Origin: Chiloscyllium plagiosum
Lineage: Eukaryota
Length of the DNA: 62,000 nucleotides
Reading direction: 5' to 3'
NCBI RefSeq assembly: GCF_004010195.1
Contig: NC_057753.1
Span: 7,741,304 to 7,803,303, forward strand
Shown: positions 7,501-57,139 of the stretch, piece after piece
Numbering within the stretch: position 1 is the stretch's first letter
Layout of the letters: the number at the start of each line of letters is the position of its first letter
Made by a program: the position numbers and the translations under genes
Notes under the pieces: model-generated
Told to the model about the DNA's origin: nothing
Database searches by the model: none
What the model saw: the letters and a program-made list of their open reading frames with translations, nothing else

Positions 7501-8097
7501 AACATTATGCTGTCGTTGGCTTTTTATATCAGAGAGGTCCTAAGCAACACAGACTCAAAGAAAATCTCTGGTTGAAGCTTTTTAGGAACACTTTGACCTT
7601 GGATGACAGATACTGCCTCAGTTAGAAGGCTTTTACGTTTAACAAAATCATTTGAACAATGAAAAGGGATTGCCCAGTTTTACCAGCTCAGCTTTTCTCT
7701 GGTTTGGATTGGTTTGTATCAGTAGTGTGAAAAACGCTGCTCGACCCAAAGAAGCAAATCCAGGCTGGTGCTCTCTCTCCGACTTCTATTCTGTAAGAGC
7801 CTCTGTTTGATTTCACGTTCGTGTGGAGATTTGTACAACTATTTCGAACAGCATCATTAAACTTGGATGATCTGTTGGTTATCGGAGAGGCTTAGTTATT
7901 TCGCATTCTGTTTTCTGTTGTTCGTGTTTCATTCAATAATCTTGTAAATACATTCTGTATTGTTTAAAACTAAGTGGTGTGACCAGCGGATTCTCTCCTG
8001 GAGTATCCACTTCACACCTGCTTAAGACAACGACCAAGGTTAAGGTCAAGGCTACCTTCTATAAATGTTTTCAGCGATCTGGCCTGGTCCATGGCAC
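4585..8097 (+). mobile_element. Gmr1-like (Gypsy group, INT-RT-RH order) LTR retrotransposon remnant with 3' LTR
   Basis: The integrase core (DVSTRFLEAIPL; QGALERWHQTLKSMLRAY...WDKGIPFVL, ~5070-5480) comes before RT (WNSPIVMV, LCVDYRK, FQRLTNKV, ~6050-6700) and RNase H (FKVAIDATHVGV, HVAGRENLIADA, ~6930-7310). The LTR is at ~7481-8097. Confidence 0.85.
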
Positions 8098-9885: not shown

Positions 9886-10480
9886 GTTATGAAACTGGCC
9901 AGACCCCCTCAGAACGTATTCAGAAAGCAGCCCAGACACTAAATGTTTATTAGTTGTTTAAGCAGATGTGAAGTGAACACTCCAGAATTGACGCAGTTGG
10001 TCACAATACTTGGCTTTAAGGAAAACATAATTTATTAAGCACTATACCTGAAACACGAAAAAAAAACGAAACAAAATTTACAATAGCTTAATTTATTTGA
10101 AAACCCAAGCAAATCCGTCGCAACTTAATGAAGATATTATATTTCCCGCCTCATCCCATAATCGCACCCCTTGACAAAAGGTAAATTCAAACACAGCTTC
10201 TTACGAACAGCAGAAAATAACTTCAGAAAGTGTTCAGAGACAAAACCAGTCGGTTGGAATCACTTTTCACTATGAATGCTTCCCTATTACAGTAATATCT
10301 TTTGATTGCCTGCTAAACATAAAAACAACCTAGAAAGAAAAGCTTGAATTAGGAGAACTGGCTACTCACCTGCCATTGTTCAAAGTAAGCATTTCCTGGC
10401 AAATTGGCACCTCCACCATTACGATTCCGAATTAAACAAAAACAAGGACAAAGTGAGCTTGCAAAACAGGACTGCATCAT
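9886..10480 (-). mobile_element. Solo LTR related to the Gmr1-like LTR
   Basis: Begins TGTTATGAAACTGGCCAGACCCCCTC, the reverse complement of the LTR 3' end. Shares blocks with 14411-15030, 38760-39341 and 7481-8097. Confidence 0.65.
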
Positions 10481-14410: not shown

Positions 14411-15030
14411 TGTTATGTACCAGGTCAGACTCCCTCGAAACATTTCAAGAAGATAGCCCCATACGTAACATTTTTTTACCTTAAGTACAGCAGCTGGTAA
14501 AAAAAACTCAGCTTTAAGCAACATTGAATTTATTTAAGTACTACGAATGAAACAAGAACGAAAGAAAACAGAATTTAGAAGAAGATAAATTATTTGATAA
14601 CCCAGCTAACACAATTTTACAGCTCAAGGAAGCAGTTCTAATTCCCGCAACATCACCGAAACAACCCGCTTGTCAAAAGATAAATTCAAGCACAGTTTCC
14701 TATAGGAGAAATTACAGAGAGAAAGTTCAGGCAAGAGTACTGTGGAACATGGAACCTCTTTGCTCTGAAGCTGCTTCCCTGTGTCCCCAGCCGTTTTTGA
14801 CATCTTACTAAAACTCAACCAAGCTGGAAAAAAACACGTGAACTGTGAGAACTGGTCTCTCCCCTTGCACTGCACAGCTGTTTTAAAAAGAAATGAAAGG
14901 GCTCATCTGCTTGTTCACTAAGCCAGCATCTGAGTGCCACTTCGAGACATATAAGCACCTCAGTCGTTAGGGACACTCTGGGGGTAAAAACGCAAGGAAA
15001 CCCTAATCTTGTGAAGGGGGCAGCATCACT
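14411..15030 (-). mobile_element. Solo LTR (Gmr1-like family) just upstream of receptor gene 1
   Basis: TGTTATGTACCAGGTCAGACTCCCTCG...GGGGCAGCATCAC, homologous to 9886-10480 and to the reverse complement of 38760-39341. Confidence 0.65.
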
Positions 15031-15186
15031 ATACTAATGCTATGCTGTGTGGATACTTGCTTTCACAAAAAGATTCAGGTCACAAGGAAGAAGTGCCATT
15101 CCATTGCAACATAAGCAATAGCTGTGTGGTAGCTCCACTAATCTGTTCGTTCCATAGATTTGATTCATGCCACAGATCATAGCATC

Positions 15187-15222
15187 TAATTAACTCCCTG
15201 GAGCCGCTTCACAATGTATAAA
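15187..15222 (+). promoter_or_regulatory. Putative core promoter of receptor gene 1 (TAATTA, CTCCCTGGAG O/E-like site, TATAAA)
   Basis: TAATTA at 15187-15192, CTCCCTGGAG at 15194-15203 and TATAAA at 15217-15222. The arrangement is conserved upstream of gene 2. Confidence 0.55.
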
Positions 15223-15274
15223 TTAGACAACATTTTCAATGAAATGCAGATCGTAGTCAGAATTTCTGATAGAA

Positions 15275-15344
15275 ATGCATGGAATACCAAGTGGACTGGT
15301 GTTTGCGATTTATTATCCCGTCCTTGCAGTGGTCGGAGTTCCAG
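15275..15344 (+). CDS. GPR139-like class A GPCR gene 1, exon 1
   Basis: 70 nt encoding MHGIPSGLVFAIYYPVLAVVGVP(A), ending CCAG|GTAATG (phase 1). Joins in frame to exon 2. Confidence 0.88.
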
Positions 15345-15742: not shown

Positions 15743-16662
15743 CTAACTTGGCAGTGATTGCAATCCTTTCCCGAAGAAGCTGTGGTCTCTCCAGATGTAT
15801 CACTTGTTACCTTGTCGCTATGGCGGTTACCGATTTTTTAGCCATTGTTATGACTGTGATATTGAACAGAATTGCTGGGATTTATTTCCCAAGCAGTTTC
15901 CTTTTTATTACTCCTATATGCAGTGTACGTTCTGTCTTAAGTTTTGCAGCCATAGACAGCTCTGCCTGGTTAACGGTTGCCTTCACCTTTGATCGATATG
16001 TGGCTATTTGCTGCCAAAAACTGAAAATAAAATATTGTACTGTGAAAACGGCAGCCAGGGTAATCACAATAGTGTCCATACTCTCCTGTATAAAAGATAT
16101 CTTTATGTACTTTATATATGAACCCAAGTACATAATTGGCAATATACCCTGGTACTGCAGCATAAAATTAGAATTTTATACCTTACCTGCATGGGTTGCA
16201 TATGATCTAATTCGTTGTATTTCAACCCCTTATCTTCCATTCATTATGATGTTACTGCTCAATGCTCTGACTGTCAGGCACATTCTAGCAGCCAATCGAT
16301 CCCGCAGGAGACTTCGAGCCCATGGCACTGGAGAGAATCAGAGTGACCCAGAGATGGAGAAGAGAAGAAAGTCAATTGTGTTACTCTTTGCCGTTTCAGG
16401 TAGTTTCATCATGTTATATTTTTTATACTTCATAATGGCTCTGTACGTTCGAATTGCAAAGGGTACTTACTTTTCAGGTACTTTTTCCGAGGAATCAACA
16501 TTTATATTTGAGGAAACCGGGTATATGCTTCAGTTTTTGAGTTCCTGCATAAATCCATTTATTTATGCAGGGACTCAACGTAAAGTGAGAGCTGAATTAA
16601 AGAATGGGGTGAAATATCCACTCAATCTATTGTCTAAATTATTTGAAATTTGCAAAATGTGA
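15743..16662 (+). CDS. GPR139-like class A GPCR gene 1, exon 2 (spliced product 329 aa)
   Basis: Acceptor TTTCAG|CT AAC. Seven-TM motifs: PAN (TM1), YLVAMAVTD (TM2), SAWLTVAFTFDRYVAIC (TM3), LLLNALTV (TM5), RRKSIVLLF (TM6), SSCINPFIY (TM7). The ORF is intact. Confidence 0.93.
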
Positions 16663-30700: not shown

Positions 30701-32463
30701 CAATAGCCAGTCTTAAAGTTTATTACATGCATAATCAACTTGTGATCATAGAACAAGATATGCGTATATATTTAAGGTTTTGGTCACCTGTTCTGAAAAT
30801 ATCAAGGGCTGGGGTGTAGTGTGAGGCTCATAATTGCTCCATTGATATAACTAGTTTAGCCTGTTCAAATTGGATTTCATTCTGAACACCAGATCTGCCA
30901 ACACTGATTATAATCCTAACATTTTTCACAGCCCTGAAAGTAAATGTCTGGACGCAAACCCAACCTATCCAGTCAAAACATTACTGTACTTAAATGCATT
31001 TGACCGGAATATATTTAACAATTCTGACGTCGACAAGCCCCTGAAATTTCGGAAGGATGTTTAAATCAGCTTGTAACATTATGATTGGCGACTTGCAAAT
31101 GCAACATTGTGCACACAATATATTTGTTTGATTAAATAGGCCAATTTTCGCGAATGTAGACGGTGACAGGATATGTGTACAATTTTTGATATTCTGTTGA
31201 ATTGCACATGCACTGCTTGGCTTTTTGATTTGTTACTGTGTTTTTCATCTCTATGAAGACTCTTCAGCTCTTTATTTTCTTACGCACTCCACGTCTGAAA
31301 ATAATCCTAAATCGTTTTGTTGCTTTATGCGTCATGCATATTTCTTCATGCCAGTGAAAAGCTTATTTTACCTGGGAACTGTGTGTTGATATCCAATAGT
31401 TTGTACCTCCCTCACTTCCAGGAGCATATATAACTTTTTTTTCTGTCACGTAAGAGAAATATTTCAATTGGAACAGGCATCAGCAATAATTTATTATTTA
31501 AATCTTTCTTAACATTATTCCTTGTAGTTTGTTTTATGAAAATGTATGTTTTTTATGGAATTTGTTTTTGTTTTTAAACTAAATGTGTTCTACTTTGATG
31601 ACTATTTGGAGCAATTATGCATTCATTGCGCACATGCTGTGTGAGTAATATGACTCAAGCAATTCATTGAATAGGTTTCTATTCCAAATGAGTACTTTCG
31701 CAGCAGCAATTTATAACAATGCCTTGTATCGTTGTGATCAGTAATTAGACTAACAACCCACACTTTCTAGAAACAATGGGGAAAAAAATAACAACCAAGA
31801 AATTGAAAATGTAAAACAATTGGTTTTACATTCTGTATTCGCCCTAAGTGATATTGCCTAGCAGTACTGATGGTTGCATGGGGATTCCGCACTGTTGCCT
31901 TCCAAAAGGTGTATCCACGAAAGCATTTAAACTCAACGTACATTATTCTTTTCTAGGAATTCAACACAGTATTTTGTCCAAACGACTTGAAATTAACGTG
32001 GTGCAATGTTTTCTAAGAACTGCGTTATCAATCATTTATGGAAGGAGACCGCCGTTATTGTTTGACGTTTGTGAAATGAATGAATTGAAGATTGGTGGAT
32101 ATTGTGGCACAGAAAGCAGAACCACACGCTATAAGGTGTTATTTCACTATCGCATTATTGGGAATGATATATGAGGAAAAAAGAATAAGGGTGCGTGAAT
32201 GCATTTCACCTTCCGGAACTATTGGTGGTCATTGAATCTTTACTGTTAAAGTAAAAATTTTGAACATATATCATCATTGTAATGCTGGAAACTATGATAG
32301 TCAGTTTGCAAAACGCAAGACAACCACCAGGTTAATGAATGGATAATATTATTTCATGGTGTTTTTTGAGTCATCAGTATCAAGACTGTAACAAGCGGAC
32401 TTTTCCTTGGAGCTGAATTTGAATTTAACTTGGATGCAAATCTGCGGATGCACATCTCTAATT

Positions 32464-32747: not shown

Positions 32748-33231
32748 TAATAGGTGTGCAAGCTTGTCATAGGTGAAATTGAAAACTTGCAAACAGAGCA
32801 TGAAGCTACTATTTTGGGTTACTTGCCCAGTGACATCACAGATTCTAAACAGCTGAGCATTGTCATTTGTGTGTGTCGTCATCGAAATTTAAGGTCACAT
32901 GGGGGAATAGTGCTGTGTTTATGTGCATTCCTGCATGAGTATGCATGCAGATCTTTGGACATCAATGAATACAGCCTTTCATTGAAGAACCAAATGTCTA
33001 GTTTCAGTTCTGCATTATGCTCAAAACAATTAACCCAACAGTATGTGCTTATCTTATAATTCTTTCGTGAAGAAATGCCACTTGTCCCAATGGCAATACT
33101 TCCTTTCCTTCCTGAGAACAGATGTGCGATGGGCATCCTATGAAAATGCTTCTGCGACTTTTTAAAAGCTAAATGCACTTTCATAAAACAAAAACATGTG
33201 ATTGTCAACAACTTTTTAAATATGTTTGTTT

Positions 33232-33296
33232 CAATTAGACGCATTCATGTTGAAAAATAATATCTCCCTGGTGGTTGACATTCACGATATATAAAA
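33232..33296 (+). promoter_or_regulatory. Putative core promoter of receptor gene 2 (CAATTA, TAAT-CTCCCTGG, TATATAAAA)
   Basis: CAATTA at 33232-33237, TAATAT at 33258-33263, CTCCCTGGTG at 33264-33273 and TATATAAAA at 33288-33296. Colinear with the gene 1 promoter. Confidence 0.55.
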
Positions 33297-33336
33297 CAAT
33301 ATTCCCATGAATTGCAGAGTTCATATTTCTGACGAA

Positions 33337-33406
33337 ATGCATGGAATACAAAAGTACCTTGTGTCTGCCATTTACTATCCGATCCTGGCAACAATAGGAG
33401 TTCCAG
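33337..33406 (+). CDS. GPR139-like class A GPCR gene 2, exon 1
   Basis: 70 nt encoding MHGIQKYLVSAIYYPILATIGVP(A), ending CCAG|GTAAAG (phase 1). Same length as gene 1 exon 1. Confidence 0.88.
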
Positions 33407-35949: not shown

Positions 35950-36869
35950 CGAACATAGTCGCCATTGCGGTTCTGTCCAAAGGAAAATGCGGTCTGTCCA
36001 GATGTGTCACTCGCTACCTGAAATCAATGGCCGTATCGGACCTTCTTGTCATTTTTGTTGCTGTAATCCTAAACAGGATATTTGCTATTTACTTCCCAGT
36101 CAGTTTTCTTTCTATTACACCGTTATGTAGTCTCCGTGCTGTCTTAAATATTGCAGCATTAGCCAGTTCTGCATGGCTAACAGTGGCTTTTACAGTTGAT
36201 CGATTCATAGCTATTTCTTGCCAGAAGATGAAAACACATTATTGCACCGAGAAGACAGCGGTGTATGTAACTGGAGTGATTTTTATAGTGTGCTGTTTTA
36301 AATGTTCGTTCCTGTATTTCATATATGAACCTTTGTACATAACTAACAATACACGCTGGTTTTGTAGGGTTAAGTTAATATTTTATACATCATCAACATG
36401 GTTTGCATATGACCTAATTCTTCGTATTTTACTGCCTTGTCTCGTGTTCACGCTGATTTTGCTGCTCAATGCTCAGACTGTCAGACACATTCTAACAGCC
36501 AGTAAAGCTCGCAGGAGACTACGGGCCCAGAGCAATGTCGAGAATAAAAGTGACTCAGAGATGGAAAACCGCAGGAAGTCTATTGTTTTACTCTTTGCCA
36601 TCTCAGGGAGCTTCATACTCTTATGGGTCTGGATTCTAGTAACCTTTCTCTACGTCCGGATTGCGAGAGTCAGTTATTATTCCAGAACCAATTCCAATGT
36701 GATTCTGGAAGAATTCGGAATCATGCTTCAGCTTTTGAGTTCTTGCATCAACCCATTCATTTATGCTGGGACTCAGAGAAAATTTAGGGAGGAGTTAAAG
36801 AATGCCCTAAAATATCCAAGGAGCCTGACTGAAAACTGCAAGAAACAACGGAAAGAACTCCCTTCTTAA
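35950..36869 (+). CDS. GPR139-like class A GPCR gene 2, exon 2 (spliced product 329 aa)
   Basis: Acceptor GTTACAG|CG AAC. Motifs YLKSMAVSD, SAWLTVAFTVDRFIAI, LLLNAQTV, RRKSIVLLF and SSCINPFIY. The ORF is intact; AATAAA at 37105-37110. Confidence 0.93.
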
Positions 36870-38759: not shown

Positions 38760-39341
38760 CGATGATGCTGCACTTTTAGCAATGTCATGTTGTCCTTGGC
38801 TTTTATCGGAAAGACAGAGGTGCAGTCCTACCTGAAAATGGTTACTTTGAACAACAGCATGGGAGTGACTCGGTCTCCAAGTTCAGGTTTTGTTTTCTGA
38901 TTTGATTTGTTTTAGCAAGTAGGCAGGAAACCACCGGGGACCCAGACAATCAGATACAGTGAAAAGAGCTGCCTTGCTTCAACAGAGGCCTTTCTGATCT
39001 TCCTCTCTGAAAACTGTCCTGCCTGTAATAAGCTCTGTTTGAATTTAAATTTTCCAGTGGTGTGTTTATAGGATGGTGCAGAGATTGGAAAAGCTTCATG
39101 AAGTTGTGATAGAATCAGTTGGGTTATCAAATATGCAAAGTTAATTGAAATTCAGTTTTCTTTTGTTCGTGGTTTATCAGTAATGCTTAAAGAAATTATG
39201 TTATGTTTAAAGCTGAGTGGTTTGACCAGCTGCATCAGTTCTGCAACTTCTATTTTAAATGAACCATTTACAAAGAAAAACGTTCGGGGCTTTGCTACTT
39301 TCTTAAAATATTTTGAGGAGGTTTGGGTGTGGTCCATAACA
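38760..39341 (+). mobile_element. Solo LTR (Gmr1-like family)
   Basis: The start GATGCTGCACTTTTAGCAATGTCATG aligns with ~7481-7520. It ends GGTCCATAACA, like the 3' LTR at ~8097. Confidence 0.65.
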
Positions 39342-53095: not shown

Positions 53096-53637
53096 TATGC
53101 ATTGCTATTGACCACCTGTCCCAATGTGACGTGTATGTTTGCATGGGTTGCTGTATGTCATTCTGTGCATTCCAAAACCTGAGAGATTCAGATAATGTCG
53201 ACAAGTCCCGTGATGTGCAACCGTTGACAAACAATCATGACGTGAAGTTGATGAAAATCAAAGGCATTCTAATTCAGAGATGCAGGATTGACGTCAACTT
53301 CTGTCCAATCCGAGTGAGGGACAAGGATGATGGACAGGCTGAGGTTTTTATGCGAGTGTCTCTGAGAGACTATGGTTAGTATTGGACTGGAGTTCGAAGT
53401 AGATGCTAACTGAGGCAGGCTTTTTGAAACAACACAGATTAGGGCAACATGCATATATGTGTCTATTAAACATGTTATCATTACAGTGTCAGGATTCATC
53501 TTAGTCCTGTTCCTTGGAGACAAATCACGCCACAAATATTGCCAAACAACAGTATCAAGCACATAGCAATTTCATTGTAAAAGGCTTCCGCCTCAGTCTG
53601 TTAATGCAGCAGGCAAGCCACTGGAGTACTGAAATTT

Positions 53638-53699: not shown

Positions 53700-54608
53700 T
53701 CAATGAATGAAGTTGATCGCTTTACTAATTTGAGCAAAGGGATATTTCAGCACGTTCTTCAGCTGATGTCTGAATTTCGTTTGCGTCACAGCATAAATTG
53801 CGGTGTTTGTACAGCAACTGAGGAGCTGCAGCATGAACCCTAATTCCTGAATAAAACCAATGTAGATATATAAATTCATATCCACAATTATACATCCTAT
53901 TCCAGATGGAATAAATCATCAACATTGACCATAACACAATGAAATTTGACGAGATAACGAACAATAAAATTATAGATTTCTTTCGATTGTCCATCTCTGG
54001 GTCTCTGGGTCTCACTCCATTTGAATGATGCCGGAGTCTTCTGCGAACTCGGCTGGTCACAAAAATGTGTCTGACTGTGAAAATATTAAGCAACAGAATG
54101 AGTAGAAAAGGGAGGCCGGGGGTTGCAATGTGGTGGAGGAACTCGAAAGTGATCCAGACCCGAGAGTCAAAAACACCACTTGATATATAACAAAACCAGG
54201 GGTTGTTCACCAGCCAATACCGTGGAGTGAGCATAAAATACCAGAAAATGTTATTTAAACAGCCCAGCACAGTCACTGTTCCCAAAATCATAGCCGCCAT
54301 TTTCTCAGTACAATATTTATTTTTCAGTTTCTGGCAACAAATGGCTACAAATCGATCAAAGGTGAAAGTGACCGTGAACCAGACAGAACAGTCAGTAGCT
54401 GCATAAAGAAGGATAGCGTGGATGTTACATACGGGCATGGATCTCAAGAAATAAAACTGTTCCTGATAAACAATCGGAATGTGTCTTAAGATCAAATCGA
54501 GGATAATGACGAGAAGATCTGCCACTGCCATGGCCACCAGGTAACGACTCACACATGGAGACAATCCACAATTTGTATTAAGCAGGATGAAGATCGCTAT
54601 TGCATTAA
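53700..54608 (-). pseudogene. GPR139-like class A GPCR gene 3, exon 2, with a 1-nt frameshift (pseudogene or sequencing error)
   Basis: Acceptor CTCACAG|TT AAT GCA gives (V)NAIAIFILLNTNCGLSPCVSRYLVAMAVAD...SVWFTVTFTFDRFVAIC...RKKSIILLF. TM7 (QELGFMLQLLSCCTNTAIY) is in another frame. Removing one base of the A4 run at 53853-53856 restores ...YLHWFIQELG. Exon 1 was not found in the window. Confidence 0.85.
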
Positions 54609-56200: not shown

Positions 56201-57139
56201 TGCAAAAGGAAAAACATAAATGAACATGTCATAAATCGAACTTGTTCGCTCCTTATCTTTGCTTTTGTGTTTCTGTATTTTCTTTTGGTTATAAAACAAC
56301 TTATTTCCGCTTGGTTAAAAAAATGCTGACTCATTTGTTCTGAAATCGGAATCTAACATACTATAATACCTGTTTATTTGGCCACATACCTAACATTACA
56401 ATTTGTTCAGACCACAGATGAAGTATCACACAGTTGAAGAGAAATAGATAAACGAACTCTGGAAAGTGGAATTTACAAGTAAAAGTCAAACAACTGATGC
56501 GAAAATATTGACAAAACTTAAGTTGGCTCTTAAATCTTTAATCGGTTAGAATGCAGGTGCAGGTTTTGATTAATTATTATTCAAATACGAGAAATTCTTT
56601 CAAGTCACTGTCGCGAGATAACTTAAGGTTTTATCAGTATAAAAGAGGTGACATCTCAAATCAGCCAATGCATTTCAGGTGGGAGGCCGGGTGTAGAGTC
56701 AGTCAGTGTCTTAACCTGGTTAGAAATGTGTTTTATTTCCAATGGATGGATTTGTAAAATGCCACATTGACTGGCGAGTAGATCATAAGTCCATTCAGTC
56801 CCTCTGGGTCGTTTTTTGAGGCAGTAGGGGTGGTTCACTAACTCGTTATTCCTACATGGAATATAATTACCACTTCTGGACGATTGTATTGAAAGAAGTG
56901 AAAAACATATTTCAGTTTCAAGCATCTTTCCCATAAACAACAGGATATTTGCAGCAGAAATCAAGAATTGCTGGACAAACACAGAGGGTTAGGAATATTT
57001 CTGGTGAAACATCAGTTAATCCTTCTTCAGGATAAGAACGTTGCAGTGTTGATTTTTTTATTGTCAGGGAAATATTTCATAAAGGGAATGAGGTGCTGTA
57101 CAAGGGCGTGGTGAGAACACATTGCATACTCTGAGACGT

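Follow-up and report, generated by a model that had tools for sequence, protein, structure and literature searches.

A candidate EBF and homeodomain promoter module in one subfamily of the GPR139-like receptors expanded in sharks

A module of about 90 bp, composed of a homeodomain site, an EBF-type site, a TATA box and an initiator-like motif, precedes a short predicted 5′ untranslated region in two receptor genes of the shark Chiloscyllium plagiosum, and it has been kept while the flanking DNA diverged. This core promoter belongs to one subfamily of the GPR139-like receptors that expanded in sharks, and a third paralogue, from another shark species (gene model P0100), probably carries the module as well. 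The explanation that we favour, with moderate confidence, is that of a TATA promoter kept by selection together with its EBF and homeodomain module, which may drive these receptors in olfactory neurons. The components of this proposal deserve separate judgement. Read from the DNA, a conserved and functional promoter is very probable, and binding of EBF and homeodomain proteins at the module is likely, while olfactory neurons as the main site of expression are a matter on which our belief is evenly balanced.

We may picture the module at work in the following way. A homeodomain protein of the LIM/Emx type and a dimer of EBF would bind side by side, as they do on mouse olfactory enhancers, the bound pair would recruit TBP to a TATA box placed 13 nt away, and the module would then drive sparse expression in olfactory (microvillous) sensory neurons. 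If expression is indeed of this kind, it follows that the family would work as a chemoreceptor repertoire. In its widest form the proposal is more tentative still: sharks would possess an undescribed family of olfactory receptors with hundreds of members, derived from the branch of GPR139 and the peptide receptors, each gene having an enhancer-type Lhx2/EBF composite beside its TATA box. Were this true, it would overturn the view of a shark nose running on some 35 V2Rs, and the composite motif would date back to the ancestor of jawed vertebrates. An olfactory-type promoter signal on a very large orphan family leads one to ask whether a whole class of receptors was missed, and also whether the composite of the mouse enhancers began as a promoter element.

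The genes and their proximal module

The window, which is the whole stretch of 62,000 nucleotides that was analysed, holds three class A GPCR genes, all of them matched by Pfam 7tm_1. Genes 1 and 2, on the + strand, are intact two-exon genes specifying 329 residues each, with a coding first exon of 70 nt. The exons of gene 1 lie at 15275..15344 (MHGIP...VGVP, with which the N-termini of named relatives agree) and 15743..16662, those of gene 2 at 33337..33406 and 35950..36869. With 201 of 322 aligned residues identical, and 39 of 81 fourfold degenerate sites, the two are, on these counts, old paralogues. Gene 3 belongs to another subfamily and is represented by its second exon (53700..54608, − strand), where a frameshift near 53855-53880 indicates either a pseudogene or an assembly error; fifteen N-terminal queries found neither a first exon nor a promoter for it in the window. 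Its relatives in the databases have longer N-termini, with repeated units in some of them.

In gene 1 the module opens with a palindromic homeodomain site of the Lhx2/Emx2 type, TAATTA (15187..15192, + strand like all that follows), at a place where P0100 reads H-L-I-I and gene 1 H-L-I-N. The predicted EBF (O/E)-like site TCCC-TG-GAGC comes next (15195..15204), conserved in gene 2 and represented by S-L-E in P0100; CTCCCTGGAG stands at 15194, and positions 15194-15203 also form the perfect palindrome CTCC-CT-GGAG. After a gap of 13 nt one finds the TATA box, TATAAA (15217..15222), matched by Tyr-Lys at the corresponding codon place in P0100 and in a second model, P0122. A predicted initiator, TGCAGA (15245..15250), was placed by geometry, and P0100, P0057 and P0065 each show a Cys codon in the corresponding position; the predicted start, A15248, lies 31 nt after the start of the TATA box and leaves a 5′ UTR of 27 nt.

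Gene 2 presents a degenerate homeodomain-like motif, TAATAT (33258..33263, +), its TAAT shifted by 1 nt toward the O/E site, followed by the predicted EBF-like site TCCC-TG-GTGG (33265..33274, +), whose 3′ half, GTG, is that of the rebuilt mouse J-element composite considered below. Here CTCCCTGGTG stands at 33264, a gap of 14 nt leads to the TATA box TATATAAAA (33288..33296, +), and a predicted initiator at 33313..33318 (+) would set the start at A33316, 28 nt after the start of the TATA box, with A33323 as an alternative and an implied 5′ UTR of about 21 nt. In calling TGCAGA an initiator we assume its consensus and the rule for its spacing from the TATA box.

Counted from these predicted starts, the O/E-like site lies about 45-55 nt upstream in both genes. 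The composite of gene 1, 13 nt from its TATA box and some 80 nt upstream of the ATG, does not have the position of an intergenic enhancer within a cluster of olfactory receptor genes. Apart from genes 1 and 2, no place in the window, on either strand, has an O/E-like site followed by a TATA box at 8-18 nt, the pattern having been defined once these two were known. Two DNA runs covering the promoter of gene 1 show three differences each, and the two that are listed fall outside the motifs. Gene 2 also has an in-frame upstream ATG (MNCRVHISDE, 33308-33336) that overlaps the predicted initiator and would be usable only with a transcription start further upstream.

To what extent the two promoters resemble each other was measured by local alignment scores of gene 1 against gene 2, with 500 dinucleotide shuffles as the null. 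The region −100..−1 before the ATG scores 50 (null mean 19.2, maximum 36), a value reached by 0 of the 500 shuffles, and the part of it upstream of the initiator scores 30 by itself, the null maximum being 29 (again 0/500). Chance level prevails at −200..−101, where 78/500 shuffles reach the score, and at −300..−101 (298/500), where the best match is GAAGAARTGCCA; alignment of −400..−301 is not above chance. The intron ends (448/500 and 334/500) and the 3′ flanks (88/500 and 399/500) also stay at chance, in agreement with the sequence-only reading from which this work started, which had seen no obvious similarity in introns and flanks. It is because the last 100 bp align far above chance, and the neighbouring regions do not, that we consider the proximal module as real.

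Every string quoted in that reading is found in genes 1 and 2 where it was said to be, and its claim that gene 2 keeps the whole grammar of homeodomain, O/E and TATA elements holds for the O/E-like site and the TATA box, but not for the homeodomain half, which is degenerate. Its block ATGAAWTGCAGA, said to be shared after the TATA box, is real, but the TGCAGA that it contains fits an initiator, at +31 and +28 from the TATA start. The ATG of this block was rejected as a conserved start: in gene 1 its reading frame, though in phase with the gene, runs into a stop, in gene 2 the frame stays open, P0100 has Val-Gln there, and the predicted transcription start lies downstream of it. Two distal blocks that had been proposed as shared, GAAGAARTGCCA and ATTCATG, had to be abandoned as well, for neither rises above chance in the shuffles and their offsets differ: the former stands at −188 in gene 1 and −268 in gene 2, the latter, inside chance-level regions, 31 nt before the O/E site in gene 1 vs 21 nt in gene 2. 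The block GAAGAAGTGCCA (15087..15098, +; partner 33069-33080) is present at chance level and is not part of the element.

A third promoter was sought in database gene models whose N-terminus runs into the upstream DNA. Seven models have at least 10 residues before the usual start, and Tyr-Lys occupies the TATA position in two of the seven. In the horn-shark model P0100 (XP_067870107.1) the peptide HLIISLE-SDIR-YK, to be set beside HLINSLE in gene 1 and ISLVVDI in gene 2, implies the layout TAATT/TCCCTGGAG/TATAAA, as in gene 1. Its motif codons match those of gene 1 and its spacer codons differ, and such a peptide pattern would arise by chance at a rate of about 3e-5 over 5 positions, it being understood that this promoter is known as a peptide only, which mainly fixes the first two bases of each codon. 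With P0100 the readable promoters are three. The zebra-shark model P0122 has Tyr-Lys at the TATA position and no S-L-E; either it is devoid of an O/E-like site, or the model is spliced at the final AG of the site. An O/E-like site is accordingly counted in 2/2 window promoters and in 1/2 of the gene models that reach the TATA position (of the 7 long models), and a TAATTR hexamer adjoins it in gene 1, in P0100 by peptide, and partly in gene 2. No further read-through model emerged from a homology search with the N-terminus of P0100 (4 matches of 12 candidates) or from 39 additional cluster members. A metagenome scan with the exon-1 pattern gave 0 matches, and of the 46 loci that a second scan retrieved with the family alignment not one was shark-like, all being distant (best-segment identity 21-57%).

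The receptor family and its possible site of expression

A search with gene 1 yielded 2614 candidates, and 1481 protein clusters passed the limit of E≤1e-10; some of the 1481 may lie outside the family. Among the best 120 of these 1481 clusters, 119 are named shark proteins, mostly annotated as 'probable G-protein coupled receptor 139', and 78 come from the horn shark. The receptors do not belong to the OR, TAAR, V1R or V2R families: their only Pfam domain is 7tm_1, and those relatives that are named or have a solved structure are either GPR139-like or receptors for peptides. Among solved structures human GPR139 matches best (PDB 7VUG, 9M42; E 4.6e-15), the TRH receptor being next (4.1e-14), and it is after GPR139 that the databases name the shark family. 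The kinship is nevertheless distant, and GPR139 is a single-copy gene whereas the shark family is massively expanded.

A quick IQ-TREE tree was built from 41 rows, none of them a bona fide GPR139. It unites genes 1 and 2 with P0100 and P0122 in one subfamily (support 100) and assigns gene 3 to a different one (100). A group of 27 rows (support 86) contains the three window genes and leaves out the relatives from bony fish and amphibians; the members of this group whose names were checked all come from sharks. Where class A receptors have a proline in TM6, the shark family mostly has Leu (61/77, with Pro in 7/77), which may reflect an unusual mechanism of activation. At 27 outer positions that we take to line the pocket the mean entropy is 1.25, vs 0.86 at 45 other outer-helix positions (p=0.017), and 73 inner positions have a mean of 0.42, the count being made on 75 of the best 120 matches together with genes 1 and 2, which are sequences related by descent. 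Human GPR139 contacts its agonist by E108, R244 and N271 (PMC12775434). With numbering set by our own anchors, the contacts E3.32, R6.51 and N7.38 are not kept in the shark family, where N/I/S, F/Y/L and Y/F appear among the top five residues of the respective columns.

The bony-vertebrate protein P0222 was considered as an orthologue of the expansion and rejected, sharks having their own copy of it at 66% identity. Together with P0276 and P0279 it represents a separate GPR139-like gene, present about once per species in sharks, coelacanth, bony fish, amphibians and reptiles, with no mammal among the 120 matches listed; two of the models are named TMEM183A isoforms, which suggests that the two genes are neighbours.

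We found no published account of the shark family or of its promoter among titles and abstract openings of the open-access literature; the main text of a catshark sensory paper contains no word starting with '139' (PMC11979771), and a whale-shark study describes cartilaginous fishes as poor in GPCRs (PMC8455134). Several traits of the family fit a sensory repertoire, namely its numerous tandem paralogues, the presence of a frameshifted copy and the marked shortness of the N-terminus. Sharks possess large olfactory organs. In the catshark the known repertoire comprises 34 V2Rs and, for every other family, 4-9 genes; the olfactory neurons are all microvillous and lie in a nearly unbroken monolayer, whereas probes for known receptors label 0.45-5.94 cells/mm, the highest value being that of v2r1, a putative co-receptor (PMC10116579). 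We infer, as the catshark authors did not, that the known receptors leave many neurons unexplained, and hence room for others.

The main rival to this proposal keeps the EBF and homeodomain promoter as it is, but places expression chiefly in another EBF-positive cell, whether a brain neuron, another sensory or solitary chemosensory cell, or a B cell. It holds this rank because EBF works in B cells too (PMC2394523) and GPR139 is a brain receptor, CNS-restricted and habenula-rich (PMC12775434). We judge it unlikely, while keeping in mind that the best-matching natural site, that of mb-1, sits in a B-cell promoter and that shark OR genes are expressed mostly outside the nose (PMC10116579). What weighs against it is the report that olfactory enhancers are richer in the side-by-side homeodomain-EBF composite than other co-bound sites are (PMC5608512), together with the size of the family and its variable pockets, which are more in keeping with a set of sensory receptors than with a receptor for a neuromodulator. 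The top-50 list for catshark 'brain and olfactory epithelium' has no GPCR (PMC11979771), which is weak counter-evidence to olfactory expression because the list does not name any V2R either.

Two single-cell RNA runs from one sample of unstated tissue were also searched. Among the roughly 13.0 million reads of run X5, 21 matched in part; their identity never exceeded 95%, and their loose ends resembled gene 3-type paralogues. Run X6 had no match in 8.3 million reads, and neither run contains a read of gene 1. The X5 reads that fall on window positions 15945-16016 correspond to a gene 3-type paralogue, and 8 of them run into unrelated sequence, which suggests a truncated or chimeric transcript.

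Likeness to known EBF sites and olfactory composites

The O/E site of OMP is identical to the site of gene 1 in its first eight bases (PMC5608512), and the natural EBF site of mb-1 shows, on its other strand, the same imperfect half, TCCC-nn-GAG (PMC2394523), which is the core found in gene 1. Sites of this type lie near the starts of OR genes in 246 of 314 promoters, with TATA calls in 39% (PMC3247239), and O/E-like sites are found in 39/39 mouse V1R promoters (PMC3247230), a relevant comparison because shark olfactory neurons are microvillous. A caution applies to homeodomain motifs, which, being AT-rich, carry little weight where the DNA is itself AT-rich (PMC3247239). The shark promoters share with those of mammalian ORs and V1Rs an O/E site near the start (predicted, in the shark), a homeodomain site and an AT-rich setting. 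They differ in that the receptors are unrelated to ORs and V1Rs, that the spacing is fixed among the shark paralogues, and that the 5′ UTR is very short and the first exon, it seems, a coding one.

Adjacent sites are another matter. The sequence-only reading had described an adjacent homeodomain and O/E pair as the hallmark of OR promoters, and this has to be amended: separate O/E and homeodomain sites are indeed enriched in mouse OR promoters, but the side-by-side composite of Lhx2 and EBF sites, with its rigid spacing, is reported to be enriched in the mouse olfactory enhancers and not in OR promoters (PMC5608512, PMC12547500). Mouse TAAR enhancers carry it too, and they drive reporters in the zebrafish nose (PMC8213717). 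Gene 1 has in common with this composite (Greek Islands, J element) a TAATTR hexamer and a nearby imperfect O/E 10-mer, which in gene 1 begins 2 nt further on, but the shark copy lies in the core promoter, one per gene, and the mouse copies in intergenic enhancers. The motif grammar is known from mammals, and what appears to be new is the side-by-side composite in the core promoter of a shark family that is not one of ORs.

The J composite was rebuilt from a mutagenesis primer and the text of its description (PMC7804114), so that the motif used here is itself inferred. Gene 1 agrees with this rebuilt J at 12/18 positions, with CCC in the same register, and with Sfaktiria at 9/18, the two mouse composites agreeing with each other, with J as rebuilt, at 11/18. 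Taken by itself, its O/E site matches rebuilt J at 7/10 with shift 0, the homeodomain-to-EBF spacing being the same; with Sfaktiria it matches at 7/10 with shift −1 and 3/10 with shift 0, and the spacing there agrees by dyad and is 1 nt off by letters. Gene 2 reaches 5/18 with Sfaktiria and 9/18 with rebuilt J, low values because its TAAT is displaced out of register. Within the window 2 of 175 TAATKR sites show a composite-type pattern, that of gene 1 and one at 56869 (−), which has no TATA box at the gene 1 spacing; by a crude summed score of the two motifs gene 1 is among the top 37 of 123,966 sites, and not the first.

Such figures bear on a second rival, in which the promoter is conserved but CTCCCTGG is read by some other factor, TAATTA being incidental in AT-rich DNA and the olfactory likeness a coincidence. 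The imperfection of the 3′ half-site in both genes would suit this explanation, as would the want of an in-register homeodomain site in gene 2 and the ambiguous register of Sfaktiria; yet the imperfect half agrees with natural EBF sites, and the TAATT-type residues are kept in P0100. We regard it as rather improbable.

Further O/E-like 10-mers (CTCCAAGGAA, minus strand) are present at 32404-32420 and 53510-53527, the first some 930 bp before gene 2 and the second a short way beyond the end of gene 3, with no adjacent TAAT; they may be due to chance.

Shared ancestry and splicing as improbable alternatives

There remain two explanations to which we give very little credit. The common ancestry of genes 1, 2 and P0100 follows from their belonging to one subfamily (support 100), and one could see in the module a mere leftover of duplication, in which selection keeps nothing but an ordinary TATA box, but neutral sites are near saturation (0.88 changes per fourfold site), the adjacent non-coding DNA is unalignable, and in P0100 it is the motif codons, not the spacer codons, that match. 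It is just as hard to believe that the block is the branch point and 3′ splice acceptor of an upstream non-coding exon rather than a promoter: CTAAT resembles a branch site, the site of gene 1 ends in AG and the sequence of P0122 changes exactly there, but gene 2 has TG, not AG, at the same place, GAG is a rare splice acceptor, the spacing from TATA box to initiator is that of textbooks, and the AG of TGCAG in gene 1 is not kept, since P0100 and P0057 have Cys-Lys there.

The window also contains an unnamed dispersed repeat of at most about 380 bp, with 69-77% identity, at 14490-14863 (+), 38861-39243 (−), 9953-10204 and 7870-8031. One of its copies stands 400-800 bp upstream of gene 1, and the repeat is probably an old mobile element.
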